From assembly GCA_049599475.1 (NCBI GenBank), contig JBMYOQ010000011.1, forward strand, positions 25,694 to 89,693: a stretch of DNA of 64,000 nucleotides. Reading direction: 5' to 3'. Below are positions 6,597 through 19,960 of this stretch, in pieces (within the stretch, counting starts at the first letter, position 1; each line of letters begins with the position of its first letter). A program made the translations under genes and the position numbers. The notes below the pieces were generated by a model. It worked only from the letters and a program-made list of their open reading frames with translations. It was not told the origin of the DNA and made no database searches. Source of the stretch: Opitutales bacterium. GTDB lineage: Bacteria > Verrucomicrobiota > Verrucomicrobiia > Opitutales > JABSRG01.

Positions 6597-6739
6597 GGCC
6601 GCAAGTTGCTATGAAAAAGGGTTCTGATCAAATCCAGAATCGAATGTTTTACATCATCACCTCGCGAGCCGCGTTAATCTATCCATCAATTCTCAAAGAA
6701 ATCCTTGAGGCGGGAGCGTTCTTTGCTATGCGAAGAGTG

Positions 6740-7699
6740 ATGAACCGAGATGTTTCCAACTTACTTGCCGCTATGTTTGGTGTGCTGCTTTTATTCGGAG
6801 CTGCCTTTCTTTTCTTGCGAGAAAAAGATGCGCCGCCGGTTGTGGATGTTCCGGAGCCTGAGCCCAGCGAGTATTTTGTATACTTTCCAAAATTTGAGCA
6901 ATGGTTGGAAACTCCGGTGAAGGTTCATGCTTTGCATAGCCTGAACAATGTGACGCTGGAGGAGATCAAGAACGGACAGAATATCGTGCGGACGGTGTTG
7001 TTCGACACTGAGAACGCGCAGAAAGATTTGGCACGTATCGTTCAGGCGGTTGATTTGACATGTAGAGACATCGTACCTCCCGCCGATGGGGGAGAGCGAA
7101 CGAGTAAGTTGCGGAGCGGCGTACTCGTCTTTGATTCTGATGATCTGTCGGATTTACGGATACCACGGCGCCCACAGCCATCGCCTGAAGTCGCTATTCC
7201 GGTGGCCCAGGACCTAGATCGCCTAATGCGCGGATTCTACATTCAAGATTTCGAAAAGGTTCAGAGCAGTTTTAATATCAAAGCAGACTCTTGGGAGAAG
7301 AAGTATTCGAGCTTCAATAGCGCATCAGGGGGCACACGGGTGGGGGCTTCGAGTATTCATTACATCCGTCAAGTTCGAAGCTTTTTACAGGGAATGGGCC
7401 AGATCAACGATCGCTATCTCTATATTCAATCTAGCTTGAACGGGACGAATGAGGCGCGCGAAGACTGGAGCAAATTTAAGGAAGAAAGTATTCCAGGCCT
7501 TGAGGCGGTCATCGTCGGTGGGTCGAATGAATCTGTGGAAGTTCAGCCAGGAGGACGTGTTCCTTTTGAACAAACGCATTCGACGCGGTCTTATTTCGTC
7601 GGCGAACTAGATATCCGAGGAAATAAAGTATTTTTGCTGCTTGGAAGCTACGCGGATCCCCGAATGAAAGTTCTATGGAGCCACAAGCGCCCCGTCTGA
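6740..7699 (+). CDS. Hypothetical protein with N-terminal membrane anchor
   Basis: Long ORF filling the gap between ispG and the cyclase gene; hydrophobic LLAAMFGVLLLFGAAFLFL followed by a Pro-rich linker; start uncertain (6728 or 6740). Confidence 0.7.
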   Translation: MNRDVSNLLAAMFGVLLLFGAAFLFLREKDAPPVVDVPEPEPSEYFVYFPKFEQWLETPVKVHALHSLNNVTLEEIKNGQNIVRTVLFDTENAQKDLARIVQAVDLTCRDIVPPADGGERTSKLRSGVLVFDSDDLSDLRIPRRPQPSPEVAIPVAQDLDRLMRGFYIQDFEKVQSSFNIKADSWEKKYSSFNSASGGTRVGASSIHYIRQVRSFLQGMGQINDRYLYIQSSLNGTNEAREDWSKFKEESIPGLEAVIVGGSNESVEVQPGGRVPFEQTHSTRSYFVGELDIRGNKVFLLLGSYADPRMKVLWSHKRPV

Positions 7700-7706
7700 G
7701 GCGGCC

Positions 7707-9629
7707 CTAGACCACCTTATAAACGCGCATGGCCTTGTGGCCTTTATCGAGGGTTTTCTCTCCGAGAAATTCAAATTTGCTGTCGTAACCTTCTTCAGTC
7801 TTCGCGAGAGCGGCAAAATATTCGGATGCGTAGATCTGTCCCTCTTCCGCAATGGGCTCCAAGCGTGCGGCTAGACTGACATGCGATCCCGTGAAGGTAA
7901 TGCAGCGCTGGATCGGGTCGAAACATTGGTAAAGTGGGCCGGCGTGTAGTCCGATGCGAAGCTTCAACTCAACTGAAAACGCATCGCTGATCTGTGCCTC
8001 TTGTAGCAGGGCTTTGGAAAAAGCTGCCGCGACCTGAGCTGAGGGGAAAACCGCGAAAAGCGCGTCGCCCCAAGTATTCGATACATCGGGAGCAAACTCT
8101 TCTTGGCTCATCAGCTCCGAGCATAGACCCAGGAATCTTGAGACAAATTCAGGGATTTCGACTTCGGGCAGGCGTGTGTAGCCGGACACATCGGCAAAGA
8201 GTATTGCTTTGGTCTCCTTGTGGGGGCGGAAGGGGGCCTTGTCTGAATTTCCCGAGTTGGATCGAGGCCTGACTGGTTGACGCCTGTTGATTTCTTCTAA
8301 CTGCTGTCCCGAGTTGGCTTTGATGGTAAAAGCTTGGGGAGATGCAGTGTCTCGCCAGATATTTTCCGAAACGACGCCTTGGGCGTGCCATTGAGCAATG
8401 TTTAAGGCGGTGCCTCCTTGGCCGCGGGCGATAGCGCCGTCCCACACACTCAGGCCCCGCACCGCGAGATCCATTTGATCACTGATTAGCAGCGCTTTCC
8501 CGAGCAAAATATTGGATGCGAACTCGAAGTCGATTGGATCTCCAGAGTATGCGAATGGGTTGAGAATATTAATGGAAGTCGCACGCTCCAGCACCCAATT
8601 CAGACGACTCTCCCAGTGGTCGCCCTCGGCGGAGTTGATGCAGATCTCTTTGAACGATTCCAATGAGAATGGAAGGATCACGTGAGCGTCGCCACCCTGC
8701 CGTATCACCGATTCGAGGAACAAAAGATCTCCGCCAGAAGCTGCGCTGGAAAACCCAAAGCGCACATTGTTGTCTTTGACCCACTGATCTATCTGCTCGG
8801 CCAGGGCTGGGACATCTGATTCGCGCAAGCGTTGATTTTCGGCAGATACCATCGCAGGATCTGCCAGGTGGCCGGTGAATAAGGTTATAGCCCCGAGATT
8901 GAAAATTGGTTCCCAGGCATCGAGATCTTCGCCACGTGCTCTCAGAATGAGTCGGGCTTGTTTCCGTGTAGATGCCACATCTGCCCACTTATCTTTTCCT
9001 ATCTTACGTGCTTCGATATATGCCTCTTTTGCACCCCAAGCATCTCCTAGAAGTAGATTCGCTTCGCCCAGAGTCGCAAGATTCCAATAGGTGTTGTTCT
9101 CCTTCAAACGTTTCAAGCAGACGCCGCGAATCTCGTCTGCAAGGTCGGCTGCGGAGTCCTTATCTCCCAGCAAATATGCTATCGTTGCTGCATTGATTCC
9201 AGGGTAAGGATCTCCGGAAATCCTCCATGCCCGGTTGTAGTAGGTGAGCGATTTTTGGAGATTCTTTATTTCTGGTTTCGGAACTGGGTGGGTGATCGTG
9301 TCCGATTTGTAAGAGCGGCCCAGGAGGGAAAGGGTCTCGGCATCTTCGGAAAATTGCCGGAGGGTGAGCTCTAGAAGCTCGCGGGCGGTCTGCGTGGCCC
9401 CGCAGCGCAAAAAGGCCAGGGCCCGTTGCTGTTGAAGCGTTTTGGAGCCTGGATGAATTTGCAGAGCGCGGGTGGCGAGTTCGACTGCCGAGAACGGATC
9501 GCCCAGGCTATTCAATTGTTTGACGGCAGATACGCAGTCGTCACTTGATGTGGCTTCAAGCAGTGTGGAATTCGCGAGCCAAAGGTTTCTGAGCTGGTAG
9601 ACGCGGGACTGGTTTCCGTCGGTAGACAT
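7707..9629 (-). CDS. TPR-sensor (TRAF-binding-like) + SLOG-like + class III nucleotide cyclase multidomain protein
   Basis: ETLSLLGRSYK, YPGINAAT and YWNLATLGEA (TPR-S/MAP3K_TRAF_bd-like); LFTGH..SSAASGGDLLFLE..HVILPF (SLOG-like); ILFADVSGYT, NTWGDA, RIGLHAGP, AARLEP (class III cyclase). ATG 9629 chosen; the ORF extends to 9731. Confidence 0.8.
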   Translation of the reverse strand: MSTDGNQSRVYQLRNLWLANSTLLEATSSDDCVSAVKQLNSLGDPFSAVELATRALQIHPGSKTLQQQRALAFLRCGATQTARELLELTLRQFSEDAETLSLLGRSYKSDTITHPVPKPEIKNLQKSLTYYNRAWRISGDPYPGINAATIAYLLGDKDSAADLADEIRGVCLKRLKENNTYWNLATLGEANLLLGDAWGAKEAYIEARKIGKDKWADVASTRKQARLILRARGEDLDAWEPIFNLGAITLFTGHLADPAMVSAENQRLRESDVPALAEQIDQWVKDNNVRFGFSSAASGGDLLFLESVIRQGGDAHVILPFSLESFKEICINSAEGDHWESRLNWVLERATSINILNPFAYSGDPIDFEFASNILLGKALLISDQMDLAVRGLSVWDGAIARGQGGTALNIAQWHAQGVVSENIWRDTASPQAFTIKANSGQQLEEINRRQPVRPRSNSGNSDKAPFRPHKETKAILFADVSGYTRLPEVEIPEFVSRFLGLCSELMSQEEFAPDVSNTWGDALFAVFPSAQVAAAFSKALLQEAQISDAFSVELKLRIGLHAGPLYQCFDPIQRCITFTGSHVSLAARLEPIAEEGQIYASEYFAALAKTEEGYDSKFEFLGEKTLDKGHKAMRVYKVV

Positions 9630-9737
9630 AGGAGGGTTTATCCCTGATAAAGGCTTATTGATAAGCTGTCTAGTGCTCACTGCCTCGTGTGCGGCGAATT
9701 GGAGCATATTTATTTTTCTAACGGCTTCCATCGCAGG

Positions 9738-9775
9738 AAAAAATAAGGGCGGCCGACACCTCCAGCCGGCCGCCC
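9738..9775 (-). terminator. Rho-independent terminator after the 68-aa small ORF
   Basis: Minus strand reads GGGCGGCCG-loop-CGGCCGCCC-TTATTTTTT. Confidence 0.8.
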
Positions 9776-9794
9776 AGTCACACTGTATTGAGCT

Positions 9795-10001
9795 CTAACC
9801 TAACAGACCTGTGCCGTTTTCACGACAAGCAGACCGATGTTTCCGGTTCGACATAGCCTCCCCGAAAGTCTTAAAATTCGTATCTCGATCGACCTTCTCG
9901 AAGAGTTTCAAGCGTTGAGTAGGCTTGAACGATTCCCTGTTCATTCTGCGAATCTGGGCGCAGTACAGGGAAGGTGTTTTAGTGAGAAATGCGGTGTGCA
10001 T
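9795..10001 (-). CDS. Small basic hypothetical protein (68 aa)
   Basis: ORF in otherwise empty intergenic space; A/C-rich pre-ATG context like other genes here; strong terminator 20 nt after the stop. Confidence 0.5.
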   Translation of the reverse strand: MHTAFLTKTPSLYCAQIRRMNRESFKPTQRLKLFEKVDRDTNFKTFGEAMSNRKHRSACRENGTGLLG

Positions 10002-17479: not shown

Positions 17480-19960
17480 GTGAGTGAGGAACCTAAAGAC
17501 GACGAAAACGAAGTCCCAATCGAGACTGCGGAGAGCGAAGATGATGTAACGCTCTCTGAGGATGCGATTGACTCTATTGTCGGGGAGGCAGCTGATTCTG
17601 GAGAAACTCGCGACCCTGAAGAGGTCACCGCAGACCAGGTGGATGCCCTCAAAGAAATGATGGGAACGGTCGGTCCTGCTGAGGAAGAATCAGAGTCTGA
17701 AACAGTGGATCCAGACGATATCGCTTCTATTCTGGAGCAGGCGGGTGACGAATCTTCTGATGAGTCTGAGGCTCCGACTGAGGAGGCTTCTACGCCGGCA
17801 CCGGAACCCGAAGAAGCCACAGCGGATCAAGTCGATGCACTGGCGGCTATGATGGGGAATTTCGGCAATGATAAATCGGAGGACTCACCCGAGGAAACAT
17901 CTGAAGAGGCGGCAGCATCACCAGCATCAGAAGAAGTCGAAGAAGAGTCCGAAGCGACTGCAGAGTCGGAGCCAGAAACTCAGCCGGAGGCGGCCGCAGC
18001 AGATCCCGAGGAAGCGACAGCAGACCAAGTGGACGCCTTAGCGGCCATGATGGGAAATTTTGGTGCTGATAAGCCTGCACCCGAAACCGCATCGGAGGAA
18101 AACTCTGAGTCTGCGGATGAGCCCGAACCGGAGGCCGCAGTTCAGGACGCGGAAGAGAATACCGCCGCCGAACCGGAGGCCCCTGAAACTCCCGAAGCTG
18201 ATCCAGAGCCGGAAGCGACTGCAGAGCCGGAAGCTGCAGCGGACGATTCACCCGTGGATGCGGATGATATTGCCTCGATACTCGCAGCGGAGAGTCCCGA
18301 AGTCGAAGAAGAGCCGGAGACCGAAGAAAAACCCGAGACCGAAGAAGCAAAGCCCGAGGCCAAGGTTGATCCCGGGAACGTCGCCAAAGAAGAAGGGATA
18401 CTCACGCCAGATATCCTCGAAAATCTTATTTTGACACCCCCGGATGATAAGCCCGAATCCGATGGAAAAGCGGCGCCGGCCGCCAAGGTTTCCGACGAGG
18501 AGGCCTCTAAGATTTTGGGTGACGAGGAGATTGAAGACGCCGGGGATGACGAACAAATCTCGGCTGATGAGCTCGCTTCTCTGATGGACGCAGAGGCACC
18601 CGCAAAGGAAAAAGAGTCATCTGAGGCGGAGCCCGAAAAAGAGCCCGAGGCGGTTCCAGACGATGCCGCAAACATCGTAACGCCGGAGGACGACCTCGAT
18701 GAGGAAGAAGAGCTCGCTGAGGAACCCTCTGAAGCGCCCAAGGAAGCCGAGGCACCCAAAGAACCGGAGCCCGAGGCCAAACCTAAGAAATCAAAGCTTC
18801 AATTGAAGTTCCCCGTATTTTCGAAGCTAGTCCGTCTGTTTAAGCCTTTGGGCTTTGTCGCTATGGTGTCCTCCATAGCAATGGTTTCAGCATTCATTGT
18901 CATTAAAATCGCCGCTCCTAAATCAGGCGCAGACGCCGACGAACATATGTTGCGCCGGATCCCGGTGGTGGGTTCGGACTACACGATACGCGTTCAAGAT
19001 ATCCAGCCCTCGATCGATCTCGCGATCGAACCGTATCTGGACAACTTTACGATCAACCAAGGATGGATCCATGCCGTAGCGCACTCAGGAGATGACATTT
19101 CTGTGTCGGTCTCCCTCACTGCGACTACGAAACAGATACTCTACGAAATCGTCGACGACAGTGTCCTGCTCAACCGCTTGGTCTTGACTCCCAATCGTTT
19201 CAATATGCTCCGCAGAGAGCTGATGGATGACGAAAAAAGTGAAGTGCCGGCGCGTCCAGCAGCGCCCGCAGATCAATACATCCGAGAGCGTTTCCCTGAA
19301 GGATTCTCGACGCGGGCAGTTCTAAATTTTTATGGCAAGCCTGATGGCCGTGAATGGGTATTCACAGAACCGGACTGGCAGGTTGCTGATTATTCCGGGA
19401 AACTGCCGACCGGATTCATCAAAGATTTCCTCGGAGGCGAGGCCATGCACATCGATGATCCCAAAGTGGGATTTTGGGTGCAGGAGTATAATGAGGCAGC
19501 CCAGACCCTGCTAGACGCCGCCCAGTCGGGGACCGAAATTGCCAATTTGAATGCCCTGCAGAAACGTGTCGATAATCGCCTAACGCTCTTTTCTCCGTTC
19601 GAAGTATTGTCTGGACGCATGTATACGCCCGACAATTTGGATCGGGGGGTCAGCTTCAACGCGATCATCACAGACGTCTACGAAGATGGATTTTTCGAAG
19701 GCTATTTCGAAATGAGGAATTTGGGTCTCGATCCGAAACGCTTCTCAGGGCGCGTTGCCCTCAGTCGGGGAGAGAATGGCTCTTTTGTGCAAACGGCGCA
19801 TATCCGCACATTCCGGGAATCGGGTCTGGAAAGTCGGGAAGATGGCTCGGTTCCGCGGATATTTGCTAAAGGATTCCAGGACAGCATTTCTCTGGTTTCC
19901 GAGCCGGGCTTCTTATCAGGTCGGCTCGACGATATGTATATCACCCTAGCTAAACCTTAG
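17480..19960 (+). CDS. Membrane-anchored protein with a long acidic low-complexity N-terminus carrying repeated helical motifs and an extracytoplasmic C-terminal domain
   Basis: 826-aa ORF (GTG start); E/D/A/P-rich first ~430 aa; three PEE(A/V)TADQVDAL..MMG repeats; one TM (LGFVAMVSSIAMVSAFIVIKIAA) after a basic patch. Confidence 0.85.
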   Translation: MSEEPKDDENEVPIETAESEDDVTLSEDAIDSIVGEAADSGETRDPEEVTADQVDALKEMMGTVGPAEEESESETVDPDDIASILEQAGDESSDESEAPTEEASTPAPEPEEATADQVDALAAMMGNFGNDKSEDSPEETSEEAAASPASEEVEEESEATAESEPETQPEAAAADPEEATADQVDALAAMMGNFGADKPAPETASEENSESADEPEPEAAVQDAEENTAAEPEAPETPEADPEPEATAEPEAAADDSPVDADDIASILAAESPEVEEEPETEEKPETEEAKPEAKVDPGNVAKEEGILTPDILENLILTPPDDKPESDGKAAPAAKVSDEEASKILGDEEIEDAGDDEQISADELASLMDAEAPAKEKESSEAEPEKEPEAVPDDAANIVTPEDDLDEEEELAEEPSEAPKEAEAPKEPEPEAKPKKSKLQLKFPVFSKLVRLFKPLGFVAMVSSIAMVSAFIVIKIAAPKSGADADEHMLRRIPVVGSDYTIRVQDIQPSIDLAIEPYLDNFTINQGWIHAVAHSGDDISVSVSLTATTKQILYEIVDDSVLLNRLVLTPNRFNMLRRELMDDEKSEVPARPAAPADQYIRERFPEGFSTRAVLNFYGKPDGREWVFTEPDWQVADYSGKLPTGFIKDFLGGEAMHIDDPKVGFWVQEYNEAAQTLLDAAQSGTEIANLNALQKRVDNRLTLFSPFEVLSGRMYTPDNLDRGVSFNAIITDVYEDGFFEGYFEMRNLGLDPKRFSGRVALSRGENGSFVQTAHIRTFRESGLESREDGSVPRIFAKGFQDSISLVSEPGFLSGRLDDMYITLAKP

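Follow-up and report, generated by a model that had tools for sequence, protein, structure and literature searches.

Two forms of Thoeris serve as the named points of comparison for the locus described here: type I, in which the TIR protein ThsB acts with the SIR2-SLOG protein ThsA, and type VIII, in which ThsB is paired with ThsI, a CMP hydrolase joined to a TPR domain. The SLOG domain of ThsA binds 3' cyclic ADP-ribose (3'cADPR), and the TPR domain of ThsI has been proposed to act as a cADPR sensor (10.64898/2025.12.03.692087). In the YpsA family, an A/G cyclase is listed among the domain contexts (PMC6459960, Fig. 1A legend). The gene studied here lies in a 64,000-nucleotide stretch of an Opitutales genome (contig JBMYOQ010000011.1, positions 25,694 to 89,693; hereafter the window) and joins a TPR-S solenoid, a YpsA-type SLOG domain and a class III nucleotide cyclase in one soluble protein (Table 1). 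The domains and the link between YpsA and cyclases are already in print as predictions (PMC6459960; TPR-S in Pfam). A search of titles and abstracts returned no experimental study of the TPR-S/SLOG/cyclase family, which earlier domain surveys and the Pucsar supplement may include, and no paper on the combination of sigma factor, subtilase, GAF, TIR and cyclase discussed below.

We propose, at a probability of roughly 0.45, that this protein stands in a relay leading from a TIR signal through the cyclase and a cyclic nucleotide monophosphate (cNMP) to a GAF protein, a protease and a sigma factor, and that the relay serves signalling rather than killing defence. A membrane-anchored TIR (or DUF4062/STAND) receptor would sense a cue outside the cell and make an ADP-ribose derivative from NAD+, which would bind the TPR-S domain, the SLOG pocket or both and switch on the cyclase dimer. 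The reader of the product, presumably a 3',5'-cNMP, would be a GAF protein that our models place over the active site of a short subtilase in the cytoplasm. The released protease would then cut a small anti-sigma protein at a conserved stretch and so free an extracytoplasmic function (ECF) sigma factor; at richer loci it may also trim exported precursor peptides bearing the same stretch. If this is true, a second messenger carries a TIR signal onward to a sigma factor, which places immune-type NAD chemistry in gene regulation. To our knowledge, the TIR signals known from bacteria end in cell death.

Table 1. Positions in the window of the gene, its domains and its leader
Feature	Position	Strand	Basis
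Gene for the 640-amino-acid soluble TPR-S + SLOG + class III nucleotide cyclase protein	7707..9629	-	Open reading frame, Pfam, AlphaFold2
TPR-S sensor solenoid, about residues 6-243	8901..9614	-	Pfam, fold match, conservation
YpsA-type SLOG domain, residues 243-430	8340..8903	-	Domain model, fold search, conservation
Class III cyclase domain, residues 467-640	7710..8231	-	Pfam, fold, conservation
Conserved non-coding leader with terminal G+C hairpin and T run (9775-9747)	9738..9870	-	Comparison, folding

A candidate output module

The neighbourhoods of homologous genes were surveyed at 80 loci, with TIR, subtilase (S8), GAF and ECF profiles derived from the loci's own neighbours (those for the TIR side from 20 of these neighbours). 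A stand-alone GAF protein and a short subtilase flank the cyclase in 19 of the 80 loci, joined in 18 by an ECF sigma factor, and on the tree (FastTree) the module turns up at five or more separate positions. In the window's genome (G000) the parts are unlinked: the cyclase gene is on contig C11, the TIR receptors are on contigs C35 and C29, and the module, absent from the window, occupies positions 97338-100053 of contig C6, where GAF, S8, a 79-amino-acid protein and the ECF sigma factor are 35-39% identical to the cyclase-linked versions. The initial annotation had put the gene forward as a candidate one-protein system; the TIR partners and recurring GAF/S8/ECF module of the family, encoded in G000 on other contigs, speak against this and indicate that the partners of solitary family members can lie at other sites of the same genome.

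Among 61 genomes of the same order, the cyclase is full-length in seven and takes a diverged, RyR-bearing form in G002. The specific ECF sigma factor, the short subtilase and the stand-alone GAF protein were found only in G000-G003, the four cyclase-bearing members of one family, G001 being of the same genus as G000. The ECF members of the module matched at E ≤1e-25 and the next match at 3e-12; the GAF alignment included G000-G003 themselves. Three further members of the family (G004-G006; 91%, 82% and 97% complete) are without all the parts. In a separate sample of 220 genomes of the phylum, the cyclase is present in four, the subtilase in two (each at most 9 kb from a family cyclase domain) and neither in 216.

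The GAF-S8 complex of G000 was modelled with a score of 0.76, against 0.01 for the best of three controls; of the reference pairs, 116 of 157 solved and 2 of 215 mismatched ones come up to the score mark, rates that are approximate because own alignments were used. At least 87% of contacts are shared between runs, and the pLDDT (predicted local distance difference test) of the partners is at least 82. The modelled GAF contacts fall on S8 residues 66-69, 121-128, 150-157 and 207-216, the regions of the conserved His69, Asn153 and Ser215. The model thus supports binding, with the GAF protein predicted to cover the active site as an inhibitor would.

The small protein encoded behind the ECF gene shares one conserved stretch, [DE]-V-x-[GA]-[RHYQ], which 20 of the 21 distinct sequences contain (1.5% by chance per sequence, with the motif defined on the proteins counted). 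Precursor-like peptides in loci L024, L028 and L031 carry the same stretch ahead of their cores, and we take this candidate cleavage stretch to resemble a subtilisin P4-P1 site. A zf-HC2-like motif was found in the small protein of G295 (E 2e-4, just under the cut-off) and, by eye, in Acidobacteria, and none in G000. Two loci (L051 and L073) have three tandem copies of the anti-sigma-like protein behind the ECF gene, each with the conserved stretch.

Fusions of S8 to HD (G238 and G295) and of an ABC exporter to a cyclic nucleotide-binding domain (CNBD; G002 and G238) suggest that the circuit involves a cyclic nucleotide. The G238 locus (contig C40, L136) encodes the cyclase fused to other domains, nSTAND1, exporter-CNBD, GAF, S8-HD, a radical SAM/SPASM enzyme and three Cys-rich precursor peptides, and from its gene content looks like an undescribed peptide-modification cluster. 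On contig C22 of G295 (L137:5438-17651), a sigma factor, a zf-HC2-like anti-sigma protein, GAF, S8-HD, an ABC exporter, TIR-TPR and the cyclase gene are co-oriented, the TPR-S/SLOG/cyclase gene being split into two frames. In G002, an ECF gene and a small protein on contig C55 (L142:7760-10617) neighbour a membrane protein whose C-terminus matches RyR weakly, away from the cyclase, GAF and S8 genes of that genome.

Candidate receptors on the input side

With the neighbour-derived profiles, a TIR or DUF4062 gene lies within 8 kb in 44 of the 80 loci, at most 600 nucleotides away in 24 of these 44; nSTAND1 genes accompany 17 of the 80 and CHAT genes 8. Pfam TIR_2 exceeds its cut-off within 8 kb at 22 of 50 loci, where the background in these genomes, 304 matches over 255 Mb, would predict 0.92 (50 of the 80 loci were used and only candidate genes scanned). 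The link extends across several phyla, many of the loci being kin. A survey of this kind had been suggested by the initial annotation, and the conflict-type association it anticipated is borne out. A membrane-like stretch is present in the TIR or STAND partner at 42 of 44 loci, against 42-50% of long frames, a contrast that is overstated because up to three proteins were examined per locus. An N-terminal RyR domain is flagged in 25 of the 80 loci and is lacking in the window protein; 27 of 28 RyR-type N-termini have the HxxW and HP pattern. Phage RyR domains are reported to bind or cleave 2'/3'cADPR, with the His/Trp pattern binding cADPR isomers (PMC13232231; 10.64898/2026.06.04.730250).

Three TIR_2 genes are carried by G000. 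On C35, a gene of TIR-membrane-repeat architecture stands with a TIR-like partner, and among the 61 same-order genomes counterparts occur only in G001 and G003. On C29, a TIR-membrane-solute-binding protein is close to the cyclase-adjacent TIR proteins of other genomes (E ~1e-41). The island around it (L096:8373-17680) also encodes a 767-amino-acid protein with SLOG and SLATT parts by eye, and two overlapping frames there make up a split nSTAND1-ankyrin gene. In L024 the cyclase has similar parts on its flanks. A SEFIR/TIR gene set on C92 (L098:6140-7624) lies amid what, by a look at the sequence, is a type I restriction-modification-like operon. On contig C85 of G003 (L108:7645-15343), the TIR gene pair adjoins an ABC exporter containing a C39 peptidase, again tying TIR receptors to peptide export.

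The sensor half and the cyclase

The full-length AlphaFold2 model has a mean pLDDT of 91.4 and a predicted template modelling score of 0.91, and no membrane-like stretch was found in the 640 residues. The N-terminus, initially annotated as a helical-repeat TPR sensor, matches Pfam TPR-S (PF20308) at residues 48-150 (2e-17; 63.9 bits against a cut-off of 27.6), as well as MAP3K_TRAF_bd (PF13281, 2e-7). Its solenoid resembles the central regulatory region of ASK1 (5ulm; Z 21.1, root-mean-square deviation (rmsd) 3.2, 240 residues aligned). The TPR-S family residues R105, K108, Y131, N146, W182, E189 and R222 are kept, while D109 deviates.

The SLOG-like nature of the central domain is upheld by its fold. 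Folded alone (pLDDT 91.8), it has YpsA (2nx2) as its best match among 48,161 chains (Z 18.3, rmsd 2.8, 157 aligned; Foldseek E 3e-7), followed by DprA, 4.8 lower at Z 13.5, and then by LOG and TRPM-type SLOG domains; the SLOG domain of ThsA gives Z 7.7. Pfam and PDB sequence searches with 75 domain sequences gave no match, and the placement rests on the fold search. The domain keeps G253, H254, D257, G299-x-D301, P320, W396-D397 and G405-G406-T407, with H254 and D301 present in 114 of 114 aligned sequences. The YpsA-family pocket is described as drawing an aromatic residue from the first loop and the acidic residue of GxD/E from the second helix (PMC6459960). H254 and G-x-D301 fit these positions, the assignment being made from predicted secondary structure rather than from a residue-level YpsA alignment. 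This protein bears on the question of which ligand YpsA-type SLOG domains and TPR-S domains bind, TPR-S being a relative of the ASK1 regulatory region in animals.

For the cyclase, Pfam Guanylate_cyc matches residues 472-637 over its cut-off (3e-7), and the fold is close to those of CyaB (Z 22.5, rmsd 1.8), Rv1900c (Z 21.9, rmsd 1.8) and Ma1120 (Z 21.5). The family has 151 matches among 7998 candidates and at least 573 stretches in species genomes; conservation was counted on 114 sequences, the 120 listed matches minus six partial ones. Every motif quoted in the initial annotation is present: LFTGH (250-254), SSAASGGD (294-301), VILPF (317-321), FAD (478-480), NTWGD (518-522) and SLAAR (585-589). 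The cyclase is the most conserved domain of the protein, and both metal-binding residues noted at the outset, D480 and D522, are invariant (114 each). With R589 in 113 sequences and K629 in 113-114, the catalytic core is probably intact.

The pocket departs from the canonical one, as first read, and does so family-wide. In alignment, N518 (113 sequences) takes the position of Glu in a guanylyl cyclase and of a Lys in chain 3mr7, and S585 that of the transition-state Asn, where S occurs in 85 sequences and N in 19. The second base position, T578 in the window protein, is N in 56, T in 29, S in 19 and D in 3; W520 (113) and H583 (109) are specific to the family. The odd pocket is thus a fixed family trait and not chance. 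The protein thus has the fold, the two metal-binding Asp and the catalytic Arg of a class III cyclase without the base-selecting Lys or Glu and the Asn of canonical adenylyl and guanylyl cyclases. Rv1900c has Asn at the Lys position, and Thr or Ser at the second base position is typical of class IIIb adenylyl cyclases. In the cGMP-making PucC, E118 is reported four residues before D122 (10.64898/2026.08.12.744502), the place that N518 takes relative to the second Asp. We estimate even odds that ATP is the substrate; GTP seems unlikely, and a pyrimidine, or else another substrate or no activity, each slightly less likely again. Judged from the modelled fold, a purine is the better guess; a pyrimidine product is unsupported because the fold is closer to purine cyclases than to Pycsar. 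The case bears on what is made by the large family of cyclases that share this uncharted pocket, as well as on a putative GAF-gated subtilase.

Weighing the relay against its rivals

Several points weigh against the relay, beyond the use of profiles and a motif defined on the sequences counted. At 19 of the 80 loci, no partner was found in the DNA surveyed. G000-G003 are kin, and therefore their agreement does not amount to four independent events; one of them, G002, keeps the module though its central domain fails the SLOG profile. Of 47 short frames found in G000, none is convincing as a precursor peptide. The window's clade, set on a long stem in the tree, deviates from the family at D109, R261, F268, P269, S330 and V331, and sensing may therefore have drifted. 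Finally, GAF domains bind many things, so that cNMP reading by this one is a putative role. A fuller version is more doubtful than the relay itself: in this three-locus cascade a membrane TIR protein would give a cADPR-type signal, the Asn/Trp-pocket cyclase would answer with a dedicated cyclic nucleotide, possibly neither cAMP nor cGMP, and the GAF protein would lift off a subtilase that cuts anti-sigma proteins and peptide leaders at one motif. If true, it would couple immune-type chemistry to both transcription and peptide export.

What, then, reads the product of the cyclase? It is possible, if unlikely, that a TIR-to-cNMP relay exists and that its cNMP is read by CRP-like or other cNMP-binding proteins, the module being co-inherited and either reading another ligand or mainly processing exported peptides. 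Eight cNMP-binding matches in G000 could be true cNMP receptors, and half of the cyclase genomes are without the module (four of eight in the order, G024, G028, G057 and G060, and two of four in the phylum sample), two observations that also count against the relay. The resemblance of the subtilase to the leader peptidase QhpE, which falls below the cut-off, and the radical SAM enzyme, precursors and ABC exporter of G238 fit a role in peptide processing. Yet in neither genome sample (61 and 220) was the module found where a family cyclase is missing, and G000, G001 and G003 keep GAF, S8, anti-sigma and ECF genes without an adjoining peptide or exporter.

The chances are poorer for an anti-phage system of the Thoeris or Pycsar type, in which a cNMP, possibly a pyrimidine one, would trigger a toxic TIR NADase, CHAT protease or SLATT pore. 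The TIR, nSTAND1, CHAT and SLOG-SLATT-like neighbours and the patchy distribution are in line with it, as is the fast divergence of the TIR receptor on C35, whose identity to its G001 counterpart is 28%, when the cyclase gene reaches 72-80% and housekeeping genes 81-87%. In addition, the Pucsar preprint describes an immune cyclase clade with a link to STAND NTPases (10.64898/2026.08.12.744502). Against this, the receptors are mostly membrane-anchored, the window copy and some clades are stable among housekeeping genes, the PADLOC PycC profile matches the window cyclase weakly (E 1e-3), and PADLOC returned no family for two homologues. No CNBD-TIR or Pycsar-type effector was recognised beside the gene, and profiles made from homologue neighbours found no TIR, nSTAND or CHAT gene in the window, in agreement with the early remark that no obvious effector is adjacent. 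Of the two roles first put forward, signalling is therefore favoured, and defence is the weaker reading because no killing effector was found and the likely output is transcription.

We regard as improbable an ordinary metabolic adenylyl cyclase of this lineage, whose TPR-S and SLOG domains would read NAD or ADP-ribose status without TIR receptors. Such an enzyme would suit a gene that is solitary in G000, G001 and G003, has a purine-cyclase fold, its own conserved leader and several changed family residues; however, a TIR gene pair is kept in just these three of the 61 genomes, and the C29 TIR protein is close to the cyclase-adjacent ones. Least probable is a cyclase domain that is inactive or merely binds nucleotides, with SLOG as the working enzyme. 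The absence of the base-selecting Lys or Glu and of the Asn might suggest it, as might the report that some SLOG domains are N-glycosidases (PMC9503650). Against it, at least 113 of 114 sequences retain D480, D522, R589 and K629, the cyclase is the most conserved domain, and loss of the Asn is reported to be tolerated in active cyclases (PMC4215837, PMC4886424).

The gene, its leader and its surroundings

The open frame starts at 9629; an in-frame ATG at 9731 would make a protein of 674 amino acids, and the shorter form is preferred because the same-genus homologue begins there and both the database entry and the closest match have 640 amino acids. The gene is present once in the 4.68-Mb genome, shares the G+C content of its surroundings and lies among housekeeping genes (IspG, an FtsX/MacB-type ABC pair, a GDSL lipase and oligopeptidase F), immediately flanked by an ABC permease and a convergent gene without a family match. 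Nonsynonymous divergence (dN) of 0.15-0.22 with saturated synonymous divergence (dS) indicates purifying selection, and thus that the solitary copy is maintained. NCBIfam and PADLOC returned no named family for the protein, and its closest named relatives are labelled Verrucomicrobiota. The window DNA is present in seawater metagenome runs, with no RNA runs among those listed.

The leader, whose hairpin lies about 115 nucleotides 5' of the start codon, is 85% identical over 130 nucleotides in the same-genus genome, although synonymous sites are saturated. Besides a hairpin resembling a terminator, it contains two or three small stems, of which one shows compensatory changes when G000 and G001 are compared. 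Its folding z-scores are -2.2 in G000, -6.5 in G001 and -2.1 in G003 (three sequences only); in G003 the cyclase gene has a different neighbourhood and is preceded by a related hairpin. From its sequence, the leader is a possible attenuator. Rfam gave no family at gathering score, metagenome contigs gave no exact match, and a match in G052 was rejected as chance, lying inside a coding region. Promoter and terminator counts were at shuffle level, and no common ECF-type promoter pattern was found 5' of the cyclase, GAF, ECF and TIR genes.

The convergent gene (6611-7699, plus strand) encodes one membrane-like stretch, is 52% identical to its G001 counterpart at the same place and evolves faster than its neighbours. 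It was kept out of the system because it matches no known family and adjoins the cyclase only in the same-genus genome. Elsewhere in the window, positions 17480-19960 (plus strand) encode an 826-amino-acid protein with a long acidic low-complexity N-terminus, no Pfam match and 60% identity in G001.

Comparison with known systems

The domain shares with B. subtilis YpsA (2nx2) its fold and pocket positions; it differs in sitting between TPR-S and a cyclase, in its 15% identity and in having no GpsB link. Among cyclases, Rv1900c (LipJ) and Ma1120 are close in fold and are described as active with His and Ala, respectively, for the transition-state Asn (PMC4886424, PMC4215837), whereas their partner domains are other ones, identity is about 20%, and W520 and H583 are specific to the window family. 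With Pycsar and Pucsar the cyclase has in common the class III fold, both metal-binding Asp and an altered base position (N518 corresponding to the E118/D122 arrangement of PucC). Unlike them, it carries its own TPR-S/SLOG sensor, has no adjacent CNBD-TIR or membrane effector and matches PycC only at the weak level given above; the Pycsar structure 7r65 is not among the fold matches listed for it.

The likeness to Thoeris lies in the TIR partner and in SLOG and TPR domains so positioned that they could gate an enzyme domain on reading an ADP-ribose derivative. Here, in contrast, the gated domain is a second-messenger synthase, and not SIR2, Macro-TM, caspase, SLATT or CMP hydrolase; the SLOG domain is YpsA-type and far in fold from that of ThsA; and the TIR partners are mostly membrane receptors, within 8 kb in 44 of 80 homologous loci and, in the window's genome, encoded on other contigs. 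For the output, the described logic of CalpL-CalpT-CalpS, a nucleotide-gated protease, an anti-sigma protein and an ECF sigma factor (10.1101/2024.05.08.593097), is the nearest parallel, with Peptidase_S8 and a separate GAF protein here in place of the SAVED-Lon protease there, and with a signal predicted to come from TIR and a class III cyclase in place of CRISPR cyclic oligoadenylate. The proposed relay is Thoeris-like at its input and CalpL-CalpT-CalpS-like at its output, and is assigned neither to these systems nor to Pycsar.

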